NCBI GenBank assembly: GCA_039621445.1
Contig: CP154954.1
Span: 4,702,714-4,725,635, forward strand
Source: Euglena gracilis
Lineage: Eukaryota
Reading direction: 5' to 3'
Length of the DNA stretch: 22,922 nucleotides
Shown here: piece after piece, positions 3,910 to 22,417 of the stretch
How positions within the stretch are numbered: position 1 is the first letter of the stretch
Layout of the letters: each line of letters begins with the position of its first letter
Made by a program: the position numbers and the translations under genes
Notes under the pieces: generated by a model
The model's database searches: none
The model's input: only the letters and a program-made list of their open reading frames with translations
Told to the model about the DNA's origin: nothing

Positions 3910-3943
3910 AAAAATGGCCGAAAATGGCCGAAAATGGCCGAAA
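3910..3943 (+). repeat. (AAAATGGCCG)n subterminal decamer array, left end of hAT element
   Basis: Three tandem copies, followed by related TGGCCGACA copies at ~3972-4007. Confidence 0.92.
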
Positions 3944-4136: not shown

Positions 4137-5381
4137 ATTATGCCTGGCCCTGCAACACATGCTGCTCAAAGAACCGCCTCTGAAAGGGTTATTTGGGCCA
4201 AAGCTGAATGTTTTGATGGCATTTCAGAAAATTTTAGTGACAAGGGCGATGCTGGCATTTTTTTTTATTTTGAAGAATTAAACCCATTTTTAGGATAATT
4301 TCTCCACAAATCTCCAGTATTGCACCCATCTTGGCCATTTTGGATCAATTTTTGCTAATTTTGGGGATAATTTGCACTGATTTGGCAAATATTGGGCTAA
4401 TTTGGGTCAATATGAGCACATTTTATGGCATTTTTGGCCATTTTGCATCGTTTTGGTGATTTCGGGTTATTTTTTATAATTTTTTGTGGACATTGTTGGC
4501 GTTTTTTTTAGGTCATTTGAAACCATTTTATGTCATTTTGGATGCTTTTTGGGGCTTTTTGGGGTCGATTTTAGGCTTTTTGTGGTCATTTTTGGGGTTT
4601 CTGTGGCCATTTCATTTTATTAGGTTGGGAGCCAGTGGATGCAGTGGTTGCAGATAATGGACAAAATGCAATGGATGCAGATGTTGAACAAGATGCAGAC
4701 ACTGGACAAGATGTCGACACTGGACAAGATGCAGACACTGCACAAGACGTGGATGTTGTTCAAGATGCAGATGCTGGACAAGATGTAGATGTTGTTCAAG
4801 ATGCAGATGCTGGACAAGATGGAGACACTGGACAAGGTGCAGATGCTGGACAAGATGTTGATGCTGGACAAGATGCAGATGCTGGACAAGATGCAATGGA
4901 TGCAGATACTGGACAACATCAAGATCTTGACAAGATGCAGGTATTGAACAAGATGCACACACCAGACAAGTGGTTGTGCAGTGGTTGCTGATGCAATGGA
5001 TGTAGATATTGGACAAAATGTAGATTCTGGACAAGATGCAATTTTGGGCAAGATGCAGACATTGGACAATTGGGTGAGCGCATTTGATGTCATTATTTCA
5101 ACATCATGGGCCAATCACATGCTTGCTTGCTTGTTTTGTTTTTGTTCTGCCGCTCAAGCTGAGTGCATTTTCTCCCAATTTCTCCACATCTAGACGGATG
5201 ATCGTCTCAACATGACGGATGACATTTTACATCAAGGCTTCTTTGAAATCATGCCTCTCTTCGCCTGCCATTATGCCTGACCGTGGAACACACATGCTGC
5301 TCAAAGAAGCATCTCCGAATGGGTTATTTTGGGCCAAAGCTGATGGTTTTAATGACATTTCAGAAAATTGTGGTGACAAGG
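4137..5381 (+). repeat. Diverged ~110-bp direct repeat pair (4137-4245 and 5270-5381)
   Basis: Shared colinear blocks attatgcctg, acacatgctgctcaaagaa, gggttattt, gggccaaagctga, catttcagaaaatt and gtgacaagg. Confidence 0.88.
4635..5070. repeat. Minisatellite with ~18-bp unit (GATGCAGATGCTGGACAA-like)
   Basis: Recurrent ggacaagatg at mostly 18-bp spacing. Produces the GQDADA and HLHLVQ repeat ORFs. Confidence 0.93.
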
Positions 5382-6181: not shown

Positions 6182-6256
6182 AAAATGGCCGAAAATGGCC
6201 GAAAATGGCCGAAAATGGCCGAAAATGGCCGAAAAATGGTCGAAAATGGCGAAAAT
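6182..6256 (+). repeat. (AAAATGGCCG)n subterminal decamer array, right end of hAT element
   Basis: About seven tandem copies, the last ones degenerate. Confidence 0.92.
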
Positions 6257-12078: not shown

Positions 12079-13396
<1,318 letters not shown>

Positions 13397-13398
<2 letters not shown>

Positions 13399-14065
13399 TC
13401 AATCAAGTTGAGTTGCATGCAGGTGTGCAGTTTTTTTCAGCTATGTCGGTGTGATATAAAGTCTGGAGAAACATATCTGAGACGCAGATGATTCTGGGGG
13501 GAACTAGATCATTTTGTACAATATTTTTTAAAAAAATTTCCCCTGGAGATGGCAGCATGTTGTTTTGAACGTGCTATTTGCATGCTCAGTTCTTTTTTAG
13601 GATAAATAAGCATCTGAATCTTCTCTTTGGCTCAGGAAGTCTGATGGCACATCACTGAAAATAACTCACGGACTTTGGTCAGTTGAAATAAGAAATATGC
13701 CAAGTCAGTTTGGTGACCCCCTGCAAAATGCGTGGAAGCATCCTGCTTTGCATACATTTCAGCGACACCTCGAGCTCACTTTTCAGAATGCCATCCTTTT
13801 CAACCGCCCACATTGTGACTTTGTCTTGACTGGCACCATTAATCTCTGACATTTTTTCTTTCTTTCTCCACCACCTCCCTGCGTCGGCGTTTTTCCAATG
13901 TGAATAATGTTCAGCAATAATGTAAAGATGTTTTCCCCTCTCGTCAATGAACCAGTCCTTTTTTCCCAAGATGAAGACGAAGCCAAATCGCTGGTCAGTC
14001 TACGCCACGGAAGCTCTCCCAGAGATTTTTTTATCGCGATATCCAGAGGGTTGGGTTTGGCCGCA
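13397..14065. repeat. Near-identical ~670-bp duplication, copy 1
   Basis: Matches 14312-14989 from tttcaatcaagttgag to gggtttggccgca, with a handful of substitutions and small indels. Confidence 0.96.
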
Positions 14066-14311
<246 letters not shown>

Positions 14312-14313
<2 letters not shown>

Positions 14314-14989
14314 TCAATCAAGTTGAGTTGCATGCAGGTGTGCAGTTTTTTTCAGCTATGTCGGTGTGATATAAAGTCTGGAGAAACATATCTGAGACGC
14401 AGATGATTCTGGGGGGAACTAGATCATTTTGTACAATATTTTTTAAAAAAATTTCCCCTGGAGATGGCAGCATGTTGTTTTGAACGTGCTGTTTGCATGC
14501 TCAGTTCTTTTTTAGGATAAATAAATAATAAGCATCTGAATCTACTCTTTGGCTCAGGAAGTCTGATGGCACATCACTGAAAATAACTCACGGACTTTGG
14601 CCAGTTGAAATAAGAAATATGCCAAGTCAGTTTGGTGACCCCCTGCAAAATGCGTGGAAGCATCCTGCTTTGCATACATTTCAGCGACACCTCGAGCTCA
14701 CTTTTCAGAATGCCATCCTTTTCAACCGCCCACATTGTGACTTTGTCTTGACTGGCACCATTAATTTCTGATATTTTTTCTTTCTTTCTCCACCACCTCC
14801 CTGCGTCGGCGTTTTTCCAATGTGAATAATGTTCAGCAATAATGTAAAGATGTTTTCCCCTCTCGTCAATGAACCAGTCCTTTTTTTCCCAAGATGAAGA
14901 CGAAGCCAAATCGCTGGTCAGTCTACGCCACGGAAGCTCTCCCAGAGATTTTTTTTATCGCGATATCCAGAGGGTTGGGTTTGGCCGCA
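14312..14989. repeat. Near-identical ~670-bp duplication, copy 2
   Basis: Matches copy 1 at 13397-14065. Confidence 0.96.
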
Positions 14990-15464: not shown

Positions 15465-17369
15465 CTGTGGCCGGCAGACGGCTGTGCAGCCACACCATGC
15501 CCCTGCCAAGGACCCCCCCCCTCGCAGGAGGAGGTGTCGATTGGACAGGCGTTCCAATTTCGATCCGCACATTTGGCCGCAATGGCCAAATGTGACAAAT
15601 GTGACACTCCCACGCCTTCGGCAGCAAATGCCTCAACAGGGCCGTTTCTGGCCTGATTTTGGCTCAGGACTGATATAACCCCCATATTTACCTTCACCCT
15701 CCCCCCATACCCCCAATGCAGACCCTCCCCCTCAGGTGGCAAAAATGTGCTGGCCTGATATGGGTGTTCATTGGAGAAGATTTTTTGGCGAAACCCGAGA
15801 CTCCACTTCAGGTGACAAATCTTACAAAACAGGGAGTGCCAATGAAAATTGAAAATGCATCGAAATAAACACTCACAGATTTATCGCACATCTCCCACAC
15901 ATCATAAGAGGGCAATGAAGCAGGCACATTAAGATATACCACAGTCCCAAATACAAATGGAGCGAACCAAATACTGGGGGCAAAGATTTGGCGACCATAC
16001 CCAAGTATTACAAATTTATTTATACATTACACCAAAATTTCTCCTCCACGCAAGCGCCAATGGCGTCACACGAGGGACATGAGACTGGAAAAAATCCAGA
16101 ATTTATCATTTTTTTCTCTGCAGACAGTTTTCGGCAATGAATTTGATGTTTGTGCTTTGAAAAATGGTGACCAGGAGTGAAAAGGAAAAGGAAAATGGCG
16201 ACCTGCAATTTTTTGCTTGAAAATGGTTGGATTTTGGAAAGAATGAGTACAAAGCTGTGTTGGTAATCTTTTTTTTTAATTGGGGGAGTTTGATTTTCCT
16301 CCCAATTTTTATAAGCTCTCAAATTTAACCCCCTGAGAGTCTTGAATCCTTTCCAAACAAATACCAGGCATTTATTTAGGCGGCACATCTCGCACCCAAG
16401 TTTTTTTTGGGTCGATGTGTGCGTTTTCGCAAGAACCACGTTGAGTTCCAGCGTTTCTAGGGGTGAGAGCGAGAGGCAACAGGATTTGACAAAATATGAC
16501 CGAATTCTCGTTTTTGGAACCAGCTCTCCTGGGAATGACGTGTTTTGTTTTTTTGAGGTTGAAATGACACAGAAAACCCCGGACCTATCTTTGGCGGCCG
16601 GATTCGCACTTAAGGATTTTTATGTTGATTTGCGCATATGTGCAAATCCCGACTTTTTGATTCCGGCGGTGAAGGGTTCAGGGGGACTAGGGGGAACACA
16701 CACGGCGGCAAGCAAGGGCAAAAACGAAGCGACTTTTTTGGTTTTTGGTGTGACCCCCGGGACTTTGGCCAAAAAACAGTGTTTTTGACGGTGTCAGGGA
16801 GGACTTTGTGGTCCCAAACCCCGGGACCTTGCCCGCCACACACACCACCACCGGGACCGCCTGCCCGCCTCTTTGAGAGTGCTGATTTTTTTTGGGAAAG
16901 TGTCTCTGGCAGTGTGCAGTGTGTTCCCTCCCGGTGCCTCGCGATGTGTGTAGCTATTTTTACCCCTGGGACTTCTGATTTTTGAACTTGGAAGAAAAGC
17001 AAGGGACTGGGTGACAGGGCTTTGGGAGGGGTGCGGGTCGGTGGGTCTGGTGTGCAGGGGGTGGGGGGAGGAGAGGTCCAGGGGAGAGAGGTGCGGAGGG
17101 TGCAGAGCTGTGCAGGGGTGATGTGCGGCGGGCAGGGCGGCGGGGTGAGACACCCGCAGGGGGTGTCAGTGGGGGCTTGGGGGGACATCGACATTGGTTT
17201 GTGTGCGTGCAACCCAGGACTTTGACCTTTGTGTTTCTGTGAGGCGAAAAACAGACAAACAATGTTTGTGCGCGCACTTGCGCAAATAAACACCCGAACG
17301 TGTGTGGGCCAGGGCAGGAGAGGGGTGACACCGAGAGAAACAGGAATTGAAAAGGGATGGGGGTGACTG

Positions 17370-18772
17370 CAGCACATCCTTCAGTACCGTCTCGCCCTTG
17401 GGTCCGACGTCGGGCGCCAGCAGGGATGGCGGACCGGTCCAGCCGTCCGGCCACCGCAAACACCACTGACTGGTCCTCCGACTCCTCCCCCTCTTCCGCA
17501 TCGACGTCCTCCGGCTGCCGCCGTCTCTCGTGGCGCAGCCCCTTCATCGATGCGAACGTCACCATCTCGTGCACCAGCCTGTTAGGGGCGTCCAGCGATG
17601 GCTGCAGCTCACTGCCGTCCAGCAGGCAGTCCAGGTTCCGCAGGGAGTCCGCCATCCGCCGCCGGTCCACCCCTCTGGCCTTCAGCTCCCGGGCACCGTG
17701 CTGCCCCTGCCTCACCAGGAGGTACAGGTCCATCACGTCCTCATCCGGTGGTGCTGCATGGAGCTGCCCAGCCTGCTGAGCATCGCCTCGTTGACCTCCT
17801 CCGAGAAGCAGCAGGCGGGCAGCTGCTCGTGCCACCGGTCCCACATCAGCAGCGCGCATGCCAGCGTCCGCACGTAGTCCGAGTGACCTCTTGGACGGTG
17901 TCCTGGTGTCGGCGCCTCCAGGTGCAGCAGCATCATCAGGGCGTTGCACAGCACCTTCCGCGCCTGTCCGCCGGTCTGCGGCCGCCGCTCCTCCCAGTGG
18001 CACTCCTGCACCTGCCACCCCAGCGCGAAGCAGACCGGCGCCCAGACCAGCAGCAGGTCCTCCAGCGCCTGCGCCACCTCCAGGTCCCGCTCCAGCTTCT
18101 CCAGGGCCTCCACCGCCTGGGCCTCCTTCCGGCGACAGTCCTCCAGCAGGCGGATGCACTCCATCTCGCGGCTTCCAGTCTGCCACGCCCGCTGCATCTT
18201 GACGCTGGCCTCCGCGTGGCGCACCTGCCGGGTGGTCTGCTGCTCCGCCTCCTCCTTCCGCTGCCGGGCCTGCTGTGTGGTGCCGCTCCACCTCTGGCAC
18301 CACGGTGTCCCGGCGCCGTCGCAGGGTCCGGTCAGCCGTTGCAGGCGGGCGCGGCGGTCCGCCGGCACCATCAGCATGGCGCCGACCCACATCTCCAGCA
18401 CCCGCACCTTTGGCTTGGTGGACCACTGCTCGCCCGGCGCCATCGTGCCCCGCTGGAGGAACAGGAACAGCGGCAGCAGGCGGCGGTACGGCAAGTACGG
18501 CATCTGCTTGTACGCGTGCCACACGCCGTACAGCGGGGGCAGCTGCCGCAGCGCCTCGCTTGCATCCCACCGCTGGCACTCCCGCCCGTACACAACCTTC
18601 AGCTGGCAGTACCAGAGGTTGATGTCCACCAGCACGGACAGCGGGGCTTTCACGCGGCACAGCACGCCGTCCTTCAGGAACCGGAGGACCTTCAACATCC
18701 CCACCTGGGAGGAGATCCGGTCATTCGTCAGCATGAAGGGCCGCCACACCAGGCACTGGGCGTTCTCTCAGC
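17370..18772 (-). pseudogene. Putative DDE transposase, exon 2 (TGA at 18768-18770; frameshift near 17745-17755; 3' end uncertain)
   Basis: ORF 17733-18749 has motifs VLVDINL, LYGVWHAYK, DYVRTL and SEEVNEAMLSRL. Coding-like sequence continues in another frame (DEDVMDLYLLV...) until GC-rich coding character fades near 17370. Confidence 0.7.
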
Positions 18773-19229
18773 CGCATCAGAGTAACCACATTCTGTATGA
18801 GAAAATCAATGCCAGCATCATTCTCACACAACTGATATGACAAAAGCAGAACTTGTTGATGTGCGCATTTGCGCAAATGCGCACATCAACAAGTCCTGCA
18901 AACATTCTTCGGGTCCCTGGTGAGATCTGGTATGATCACAAAAAAAATGTATCTGTGCGCAAATGCGCAAATCAAATAATACAAACATTGTAAAAGAGAT
19001 TTTTTTTGTTAAAGACTGCTGTACCACCTAAGACTGGTATTTAATTCAAACACATAAGACAGAGTTATGTGGGCGCATTTGCGCGCGTGCTGGTGTAATT
19101 AAATTTTATGTAACAGTGAGGCACCTACCTGTACGTCAGAAACACATCATTATTAACAGAAGCAACCAGAATGCCCACACAGACCATCAACCTACAGAGG
19201 CTTTCAAAAAAAATTCAGTCATTCTGATG
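18773..19229 (-). other. Candidate non-conventional (euglenid-type, non GT-AG) intron in the transposase gene
   Basis: AT-rich 457-nt insert. On the sense strand, 5' CAUCAGAAUGACUGAAUU pairs with 3' AAUGUGGUUACUCUGAUG at 16/18 positions (three G-U). CAG at +4..+6 and CTG at -8..-6. Removal joins the two ORFs in frame. Confidence 0.6.
18851..18894. repeat. Perfect 44-bp palindrome
   Basis: ACTTGTTGATGTGCGCATTTGCGCAAATGCGCACATCAACAAGT equals its own reverse complement. Confidence 0.97.
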
Positions 19230-20013
19230 AACGGGGCACGTCCAGCGGCACGCGCAGCTCATGCGCGTCCAGCGGCCGCGCACTGATCTCAGAGACCAGC
19301 TCGATAAACACCGGCAGGTCGGTCTGGACCAGCCGTGCGGACACCCGGTGGACGCGGCCCAGCAGCTGCTCCAGCAACGGGTACCCCGGGTACTCCGGGA
19401 TGGCGTCCACCGCCGTCCGCATCATGGCCATGATACAGCAGTCGTGCGTCCTGATGACCATCCTGAGGTTCAATGTCATGGCCCTCTTCCAGAAGTTGTC
19501 GAACCACAGGACACAGCTGCGCCCCTCCGACTGCTGCCACAGGTCCTCCAGCCGCTCGCACGCCCGCTGCCACCGCCACTGCCGGTTCCACATGGGCTCC
19601 TCTGGCAGGATGCCGCTCGGTCGCAGCAGCCGGCTGGCCGTCCGGTGCCTCGCCAGCGGCGCCTCGTGCTCCTCCGCCACCACCCGCTGCGCCGACCGCG
19701 GGCAGGCGCGTTGCCGCACCGTCCGGTACACCGCCCAGGCGTCCTTCAGCAGCAGCTTGATCCGCTGCCGCCGTGGCTCCCGGGCCAGCTCCTCCAGCAG
19801 CGCCGCGCTCCCCTCCGTCCGCAGTGGCACCCTGGTGTGGGCCACCACCAGTGTCTGCAGCGGGTGGCCTCGCTGCACCACCGCCGCTTTGAACTCCTCG
19901 TAGGTGGCGGTGAAGTGGGCTTTCACCAACTGCCCCAGCAGCTTCCCAGCCTCCGCTACGAAGCTGTCCTGTCACTGCGGTGGGAGTGTGCTGCTGGCCT
20001 GGGAGGACTCCAT
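19230..20013 (-). pseudogene. Putative DDE transposase, exon 1 (N-terminal part; in-frame TGA at 19972-19974)
   Basis: ATG at 20013 is in frame with ORF 19219-19929. Strong GC3 bias. Contains a hydrophobic strand + DN motif (CVLWFDNF) and ends in LRVPLDVPR. Confidence 0.7.
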
Positions 20014-22417
20014 CAGTCCTCCCCAGGTCTGCCGGCATGCTGCCTTTCATCAACCCACAAATCTTTTAACGTCACACCCCCATCATCGTCATCCTGCCTA
20101 CTTCTGGTATATACACATTACACGCTACGTCCCACAATTCTGTGTTTTTTAGAATTGTTTATGCGCGCAATTGCGCAAGTCAATAAAGAAAAAGAACATA
20201 ATAATACACAGCTGTACAGCTGTACCCTGCCTTGCCATCCCCTATGTAAGTCAACTCCAGACAGGGGACAGCACATTAACATCGCCATTGAGCCTTGACC
20301 ACCCCGCACGTGACACACACTCTCACTTTGCGAGCAACAAAACATCCCATTGGTCACAACATCTCAACCATCCAGACAAATCGCACCCTACTGACACAAT
20401 AAGTAACTTGCATACACGCCCATTCAGCGTCAACATCCAGTGACTGGTAACGCAATACCCTCTGGGTCCTTGTAGAACAAAAATCAACCATTGTGCGCAC
20501 AATTGTGCAAATCAACATGGACACTTTTCATTTCTGACATAATCTGGGGCATTACAACCGCCATCTGAGCAACACAAAACAATCACAGCAAGATCAGTTG
20601 TTTATGCGCGCATTTGCGCAAGTGTGCAGTGCGCCATAATTAAAATTTCTTTCCTACATCAGTTAGAAGGTTCCAATTCACCCGCCATTTCTTCCCCGTT
20701 GTCAAAACAGGGGTCCCACACCCCTCTCCAAACACACCCAATTCCATCGTAATTCGCAAATCCTGGCACCCAACAGACCCTCACAATAATTCTGGAATTC
20801 ATCAAAGGTGTCTGTTTTCATCGCAGCATTCACAGGTCATATTTTCACCCTCAAATAGCCAAATACTGTACGCCGCCAGATCTGGCCAAACGGATGCCGC
20901 GGGGTGGTGTAGGGTGGAAGAGGGTGTCGGTAGGTGTTCAACGGACAGTGTGCAAACAACCAGCTGCGGGAGAGGGAGAGGTACAATTTTTCGCGCGTCC
21001 GTCCGGTCGCGGAGTCAGTTAGGATTTTGTATTTGAAGGGGTTCGAATTGCCCAGCCCTAACGAGTTACGTTAGCATTTTCAAAAATTTTTCGGCGGAGA
21101 GGGTACTGGGTCCCGGGGGTTTCACAGAATTCACGCATTTGCGCAATTGCGCAAATTCTAAAGAAAAAACACTTAAGTGCGAATCCGGCCGCCTAAGCTA
21201 TGCCCCCAAAGTGAAAAATCACTGACAAAAACATCAAAACCCCAGTACTGCCTCCCCCTATTTTGAGCGATGCTCTCCTCACCGGTTTTTGGGGCATTTG
21301 CCGGCCTCTGATTTGTGTTTTTGGACGTTTGCCGGAGCGAGGGAATGAGGATGGGGGGTTAGGGGGTCCAGCCGCGTCGCCAAGCGGGACCACAGGGAAG
21401 GATGGTGTGCCTGGGGCTTTTGCGAAGGCTTTTGCAGGGTGAAGGGAAAGTGGTTTGAAGGGTTTGACAGTCGCAATTCCCCACCGAACTTGCAGCAGGA
21501 TTTGTCTGGCCAAATTGTGTCGTGAAAATGGGAGAGGGGATCATGCAAATTTCATGGGAATGATTGATTAATTGCAGCCTTGGTTTGAACAAAGAAAAAA
21601 TGTCCATGTGTGCACTTTAGCACATCGACCGGTTTTGCCGTTCCCCTGGATAATGGCAAATACCCCACAAGTCACACCGCTGAAAGCGGTACAGCAAATT
21701 CCATGAGTTTGGGACAGAGGATGGGGCCGGTTTGCGCAAATGCGCACACCGTCAATGTGTGCATATTTTCGAAAACGACGTCATGTACATTTGTGAAAAA
21801 GGGGTGTGATCAAGTACCACGGCACATAAACAGATTTTGCTCCCCTGAGCCTTTCAAAACAACAATAACTGGAAGGGCTTACACCACAGTCCCACTCTGA
21901 AACCAGACAGAAATTGAAAAATCATATGTATCAAGTACCAGGTTGAAATGAAAAAAAGTGGTCAGTTTGCGTAAATTTGCACGTGGTCGGTGTTTGCACA
22001 CTTTTGAACACCGTCCACGTGCATAAATGTGCTATGTAACAGCCAGGGTGTACAACCCACCTTTTTTTTGACAGACAAGAATACAAATCTGTCGCTCCAG
22101 ACCTTTCAGACAGCTCGTCAGGATGACAGTTCGTAACCTTTGTGTTTCTTAACTTGTATCATGAAGTGTGCAGTTACGTATTTTTGTTTCCCTAGGTGCA
22201 TTCGGCGGTTCAAGGATTTTTCAAAAATTGTCGATGTGTGCAATTGCGCACATTGACAAAGAAAAAAGCTCAAGTGCGAGATCCGCCGCCTGAGTTTTAA
22301 ATGGAGTGGGGGTTAGTGCCTGCACCTCAGCCTGCTCCCAAGTGGCATATTTTGTGCCCCTTTTCATCGTAGTCAGGTCCTGTTATATTATTTATTATAG
22401 TATGTTATTTATATTTA

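Follow-up and report, generated by a model that had tools for sequence, protein, structure and literature searches.

Knock-in assays in Euglena gracilis have defined a code for nonconventional introns, 5'-N3CDG ... CH'GN5-6 then purine, which tolerates no 5' spacer other than 3 nt, allows 5 (or 6) nt as the 3' spacer and requires the sequences next to the motifs to pair (PMC12501133). The accessible part of PMC11170887 gives a wider E. gracilis consensus, with CCAGG at +3..+7 and CCTG at -9..-6, and describes a C-rich tract in conventional introns of the same species. As for their origin, the descent of euglenid nonconventional introns from MITE-like elements has already been proposed, with the mechanism not shown in the sections available of PMC11282704 and PMC12621601. 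Literature searches combining nonconventional introns and transposase revealed, by title or abstract, nothing on euglenid element genes.

Here, we analysed a window of 22,922 nt (the whole stretch of DNA under study), in which a preliminary description had proposed that a transposase gene is interrupted by a segment resembling a euglenid nonconventional intron. The explanation that we favour, which could as easily prove wrong as right, is that an inverted-repeat element, possibly of an intron-like kind, inserted as DNA into a dead gene copy. In this reading, some 455-463 nt of inserted DNA interrupt a decayed copy, silent in the sampled RNA, of a transposase-like gene that is GC-rich and in part highly repeated. 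The inserted stretch is AT-rich and non-coding, with short terminal inverted repeats, and holds foldback copies of a kind abundant around the gene, while its inverted ends carry by chance, or had from their origin, a complete euglenid nonconventional-intron code. We infer its arrival as DNA, its nature as a present or past mobile inverted-repeat element, and the order of insertion and decay. A working intron in a working transposase gene is not supported.

The interrupted gene copy

The interruption is located in a GC-rich coding island (~69% G+C) on the minus strand, extending from about 20013 to 17367, in which two reading frames are split by an AT-rich stretch. The upstream frame (19231..19971; ORF 19219-19971, 250 aa) is homologous to residues about 7-257 of its relatives and ends with an invariant Arg, and the downstream frame (17733..18767, 344 aa) is homologous to their residues about 258-636. 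Six metagenome relatives (626-892 aa, 42-54% identical) cross the break without interruption, and the ORFs found on two metagenome loci (657 aa and 714 aa, on L001 and L002) do the same. The family is large, with 1023 cluster representatives at E <= 0.001 and 193 at E <= 1e-30. No close paralogue was detected in the protein collection, where the best matches reached 54% (longer proteins) and 44% (1 match).

The DNA around this island (40-50% G+C) is microsatellite-rich and without other recognisable gene. Among 28 tandem-repeat entries in all, the window includes (GAC)n of 958 nt at 12230-13187, (TGTC)n of 720 nt at 555-1274 and (ATT)n of 210 nt at 14104-14313, and a 10-nt tandem unit, AAAATGGCCG, occurs at both 3911-3943 and 6182-6256, 2.2 kb apart. 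An 18-nt tandem repeat at 4674-4895 (12.3 copies, 78% matches) lies in an open frame whose predicted product is an acidic Asp/Ala/Gly/Gln hexapeptide repeat with no Pfam match. A direct duplication (13365-13904 and 14280-14826) has copies 915-922 nt apart that share 99-100% identity over stretches of 245 and 300 nt, and A/T-rich trinucleotide repeats come after each copy. Pfam searches with the 61 window ORFs outside the gene, together with 2 relatives, gave nothing above cut-off and two sub-threshold rows, Rfam had 0 matches in the window, and none of 28 pattern matches to viral contigs was confirmed.

Sequence searches did not assign the gene to a known transposase family. Pfam matched 0 of 51 family members at E <= 0.001 and gave one sub-threshold row for the two window frames; at E <= 10, ten relatives produced scattered sub-threshold rows and no DUF6589. 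Profile searches of the gene family against PDB sequences reached best E-values of only 0.22 and 0.31. With the Protein Atlas, the upstream frame (ORF A) had no feature match above 0.88, the best three being giant-virus hypothetical-protein clusters. For one relative (P0002), the nearest named Protein Atlas clusters were of DUF6589 (26 of 30 matches, best 0.92), a candidate that the profile search did not confirm.

The AlphaFold model of a full-length relative was confident (pLDDT 89.2, pTM 0.85), and the model for this family (relatives P0001-P0153) showed an RNase H-like core with a ~100-residue antiparallel coiled-coil hairpin inserted behind it. Since fold searches with the full model were swamped by this hairpin (residues 391-490), the core was folded alone (pLDDT 82.5). 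Foldseek returned no match at E <= 0.001 for the models. The best structural neighbours of the core, every one with a Z under 8, were all RNase H-fold enzymes: lentiviral integrase cores (Z 6.3, rmsd 2.4-2.6, 80-82 aligned), Hermes (Z 5.5, 162 aligned residues), the P element transposase (Z 5.2, 168 aligned residues), and Tn5, RAG1 and Transib (Z 4.3-4.8). The family alignment has two invariant Asp residues at the strands expected for this fold, the modelled core placing one on the first strand and the second after the fourth. The gene may thus plausibly be called transposase-like, a reasonable but unproven label: the weak RNase H-fold matches lend plausibility to the claim of the preliminary description, and the sequence searches gave no Pfam or PDB match. 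The surroundings of the gene showed no terminal repeats belonging to a whole element.

Besides the insertion, the gene copy has accumulated four lesions, namely an early TGA, two frameshifts and a missing C-terminus. The region 19972..20013 (minus strand) contains the only ATG of the upstream frame, a candidate start at 20013-20011, cut by an in-frame TGA (19974-19972) after 13 codons, and no other start is available. Homology switches frame between tblastn ends at 17736..17748 and again at 17456..17467, and is no longer detectable beyond 17367; nothing in the window corresponds to the final ~90 residues of the relatives. An independent contig from the DNA run X1 is identical to the window over 17348-17521, so the second frameshift is real and not an assembly error. 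Judged from its sequence, the gene copy is a pseudogene.

Little RNA was recovered. Two raw-read RNA runs (X21 and X24) were mapped on 16000-21500, with about 5-6% of each run read. Only 9 of 12,895,792 X21 records and 29 of 8,290,152 X24 records were placed, 8 of the 9 and 27 of the 29 fitting only partly, and the few reads fell on bins holding the short foldback repeat (see below). In both runs, at this ~5-6% sampling, depth was 0 in 12 of 12 pure exon bins (17472-18759 and 19128-20047), a result that bears on expression and not on splicing. Expression of the gene copy is very low or absent in the sampled RNA.

Ends, content and depth of the insertion

The segment at 18773..19229 (457 nt, minus strand) is the excision unit under the published Euglena code and reads CAT-CAG ... 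CTG-ATGCG, then G. It has CAG at +4..+6 and CTG at -8..-6, with CAT-CAG at 19229-19224 and the G at 18772 following the CTG-ATGCG end, and it matches the published code in every sequence term. Its G+C content is 39.6% vs 69% in the two flanking reading frames, and the insertion contains no ORF. A terminal inverted repeat of 18 nt, perfect over its outer 7 nt, has its 5' arm at 19212..19229 and its 3' arm at 18775..18792 (both minus strand), with 7 more nt (18774-18768) before the reading frame resumes. Taken as RNA, 16 of the first 18 nt can pair with their counterparts in nt -3..-20 (13 Watson-Crick and 3 G-U), including 10 of the 12 positions beside the CAG and CTG motifs when G-U is counted. 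The AT-rich 457-nt interruption, the 16/18 count and the placement of both motifs were all as the preliminary description had reported them.

The preliminary description had further argued that three G-U wobbles favour an RNA stem over a DNA inverted repeat. The wobbles are there, and the asymmetry between strands (3 vs 1) is weak evidence for pairing as RNA rather than DNA, since 14 of 18 positions remain paired on the opposite strand (13 Watson-Crick and 1 G-U). RNA folding, which it had proposed as a check, joined both ends of the segment in the minimum-energy fold (-153.7 kcal/mol, z -4.61, with 0 of 100 shuffles as good), much of the energy being supplied by an internal 25-bp palindrome. 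In chance controls requiring 13 of 18 pairs with a perfect outer 7-bp run, and allowing 13 x 13 end offsets, such ends occurred in 3 of 5000 random window segments (471 nt) and in 5 of 5000 shuffles. The inverted ends are non-random. The code itself is loose, with 197 start/end pairs with 10 of 12 positions paired in the window vs a mean of 84.6 in 30 block shuffles; the notable point is that one code-type pair brackets the gap in the gene.

A palindromic unit centred on GCGCAAATGCGC occupies three sites in the insertion and is also present in the flanks of the gene. One is a 54-nt palindrome at 18846..18899, with 27-nt arms that are 96% complementary, and two more motif copies (18957-18968 and 19073-19084) are found within 18954..19084. 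The motif has 12 matches in the window vs 0.08 expected, all within 17272-21745, a range widened to 16632-22238 by looser copies; no literature match was found for this 12-nt sequence. These motif-centred units are the only similarity between the insertion and its flanks, and the arms of the terminal inverted repeat do not resemble them. More broadly, the foldback unit has a GCGCAAATGCGC-like core, with outer arms such as GGCGGCCGGATTCGCACTTAAG in some copies, and was observed over 16376-22290 (e.g., 16581-16690, 18846-18899, 20493-20508, 20598-20628, 21133-21205 and 22212-22271). It is confined to 6 kb around the GC-rich gene and absent from the first 16 kb of the window; the X1 bins that contain it had summed depths of 33,596-78,270.

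The 5' boundary of the insertion is crossed unspliced by one contig from X1 (169 nt, 19182-19351) and one from X15, a run of uncertain kind (508 nt, 18858-19366), each with more than 31 nt on either side; the 3' boundary was not among the contig pieces listed (16 of 3042). The bridging of the 5' boundary by both contigs indicates that the insertion is real and common to the data sets, and it refutes an assembly artefact or chimera at this boundary, an explanation left with virtually no probability. Over 18858-19366, the X15 contig differs from the window by 17 differences and 3 gaps in 508 nt (about 3%), and X1 has 13 listed differences, most of them common to X15. No difference from the window was seen in the X1 contigs covering 16000-16368, 16423-16622 and 17348-17704. 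This divergence may be uneven along one locus or may reflect a second copy that also carries the insertion.

Summed X1 depth ranged from 50,174 to 154,853 in parts of the gene vs 150-170 in the flank bins at 16000-16367. Near both boundaries of the insertion it was 120-589, at locus level, and in the insertion body it was flank-like (47.6-677.6 at 13 listed positions). These depths indicate that sub-segments of the gene are highly repeated and that the insertion body is not. The suggestion from summed DNA depth that most gene copies lack the insertion was dropped, the boundary depths being at locus level. No family of insertion-like elements was seen in X1 at 95% identity or more, and none of the 15 DNA joints listed, out of 42, skipped 457-466 nt; all link copies of the short motif.

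Most cut-and-paste elements leave a target-site duplication. None of 2 nt or longer was found beside the 455-nt inverted-repeat unit or the 463 extra nt (see below), by eye and in all registers, and this argues against the insertion of a mobile element, as does a body that is not multi-copy in X1 (at least 95% identity). The lack of a duplication, the single-locus depth of the body and the foldback units common to insertion and flanks are what would be expected of a non-mobile insertion, such as break-repair filler from nearby foldback-rich DNA, with the inverted ends as a by-product. This origin is nonetheless distinctly improbable, as the terminal inverted repeat stands at the very ends, which is rare by chance, and its arms are unlike the foldback units. 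For the inverted-repeat element that we favour, the points to be explained on the other side are the exact match to the Euglena code, as in a real nonconventional intron, and a 457-nt cut that keeps the frame, for which the chance is 1 in 3.

Predicted excision outcomes and conserved protein spacing

Uninterrupted homologues, to which the preliminary description had looked for the boundaries, fix the length of the extra DNA, at 463 nt rather than 457 or 466. Spacing was assessed on the 51-member family alignment at the break site, where an invariant Arg stands directly ahead of the break and an invariant Trp just past it, with 7 residues between them in 50 of the 51 members and 6 in one. The window regains Arg-x7-Trp only by a 463-nt removal (19230-18768, or slid by a few nt). 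This stretch, 18768..19230 on the minus strand, is extra relative to the protein family, and its removal joins the Arg codon (19233-19231) to a Glu codon (18767-18765). Cuts of 463 nt starting at 19232, 19231 or 19230 give an identical protein, those starting at 19228-19221 retain seven residues from Arg to Trp with some residues changed, and the one starting at 19229 creates a TAG stop. Neither GT-AG nor nonconventional-code borders occur among these registers.

Removal of the 457-nt segment joins the frames but yields Arg-Cys-TGA-Glu, with the TGA (18768..18770, minus strand) kept in frame, an outcome already present in the preliminary description and reproduced here. The product has Arg-x9-Trp plus the TGA, and x9 is found in none of the 51 family members. 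Once the 3-nt spacer sets the 5' cut, all frame-keeping 3' cuts down to 18767 give stops (TGA, TGA and TAG). A genuine nonconventional intron cut at 19229/18773, dating from when the gene worked, with the TGA two codons past the joint as a later mutation, is conceivable but unlikely. It would account for the full code (N3-CAG, CTG-N5, purine next) with 10 of 12 positions paired beside the motifs, for the pairing of the ends in the minimum-energy fold, for the restored frame and for the lack of a target-site duplication, as an exact intron would have; the large, repeat- and microsatellite-rich setting also fits a euglenid (genome sizes in the available part of PMC12501133). However, it requires an unusual loop length, x9 where 50 of 51 relatives have x7, plus a nonsense mutation that falls precisely within the two additional codons, and the code alone is unspecific, given the 197 window pairs vs the mean of 84.6 in 30 shuffles. 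What the preliminary description had claimed about likeness to euglenid nonconventional introns therefore held for the code, and the reading as an intron fared badly against the TGA and the x9 spacing.

The preliminary description had also offered a GT..AG alternative, a conventional spliceosomal intron from 19232 to 18767. Its GT and AG are present, and the 466-nt removal restores the frame and removes the TGA, giving Pro-Gln-Asn with no stop; so far the suggestion stands. The conserved protein is not regained, however, as this cut loses the Arg present in all of the 51 relatives and leaves the product one residue short. There is also no pyrimidine-rich tract before the AG, where conventional E. 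gracilis introns have a C-rich tract according to the accessible part of PMC11170887. In addition, the X1 and X15 contigs differ from the window at 19231, a synonymous change in the Arg codon after which the GT-AG donor reads GC. A GC donor is allowed but weaker. Taken together, a conventional intron is highly improbable. Against both introns stands the lack of any RNA joint in X21 or X24, at about 5-6% of each run and with no reads in the exon bins. Neither proposed intron restores the conserved protein, the 457-nt cut giving x9 and a stop and the 466-nt cut deleting the Arg.

Under a DNA-level insertion of an inverted-repeat element, the code-directed cut would fall 6 nt short of the true insertion and leave Cys-TGA in frame, so it could not rescue the protein. 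In a euglenid host, the transcript would probably lose nt 19229-18773. The protein comparison yields a checkable prediction, namely that the true insertion is 463 nt and the code-directed cut 457 nt.

Comparison with known introns and elements

A bolder version of this reading, tentative and rather unlikely, would be a recent inverted-repeat insertion with a complete nonconventional splicing code in its own ends, that is, a nascent or failed intron in a transposase-like gene. If true, it would directly exemplify an origin of nonconventional introns in mobile inverted-repeat DNA, and would also show why only some such insertions survive as introns. More generally, a code-bearing insertion with datable borders would be a useful specimen for the question of descent from MITE-like elements. 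It would be one more specimen for this published idea and no new kind; as a single insertion in a dead copy, the locus does not show a mobile element carrying or spreading such introns.

Compared with DDE transposases and integrases (Hermes/hAT, P element, retroviral integrase), the modelled core of the interrupted gene has the same strand order, and in the model it is followed by a long helical insert like that of hAT, P and RAG-type enzymes. Unlike DDE transposases, the gene has no Pfam or PDB sequence match, and its fold matches remain at Z < 8.

Euglenid nonconventional introns have the same CAG/CTG placement, the 3-nt and 5-nt spacers, the purine next and the pairing of the ends, and, like the segment under these borders, they lack GT-AG. 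The length of the segment falls within their range of tens to thousands of nt, as given in the available parts of PMC12501133, PMC11170887 and PMC11282704. The wider E. gracilis consensus is matched by the segment only in its core. According to the same papers (PMC12501133, PMC11170887, PMC11282704), 84.4% of E. agilis introns have short direct repeats at their junctions, which the segment lacks. Unlike those introns, its excision gives no open, conserved frame.

MITE-like introners and non-canonical introns of Micromonas, Amoebophrya, Polarella and diplonemids, as described in the accessible sections of PMC11282704 and PMC12621601, are likewise short, non-coding inverted-repeat insertions in coding sequence. 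According to the same sections (PMC11282704, PMC12621601), those introners have target-site duplications of 3-5 nt and form many-copy families, whereas here there is no duplication and no other copies were seen at 95% identity or more. The remaining comparison is with nested insertions in dead transposable elements: like those, the gene described here is an interrupted, frameshifted, truncated and silent copy with highly repeated parts. Yet an ordinary nested insertion need not carry a splicing code, and the ends of this insert do.
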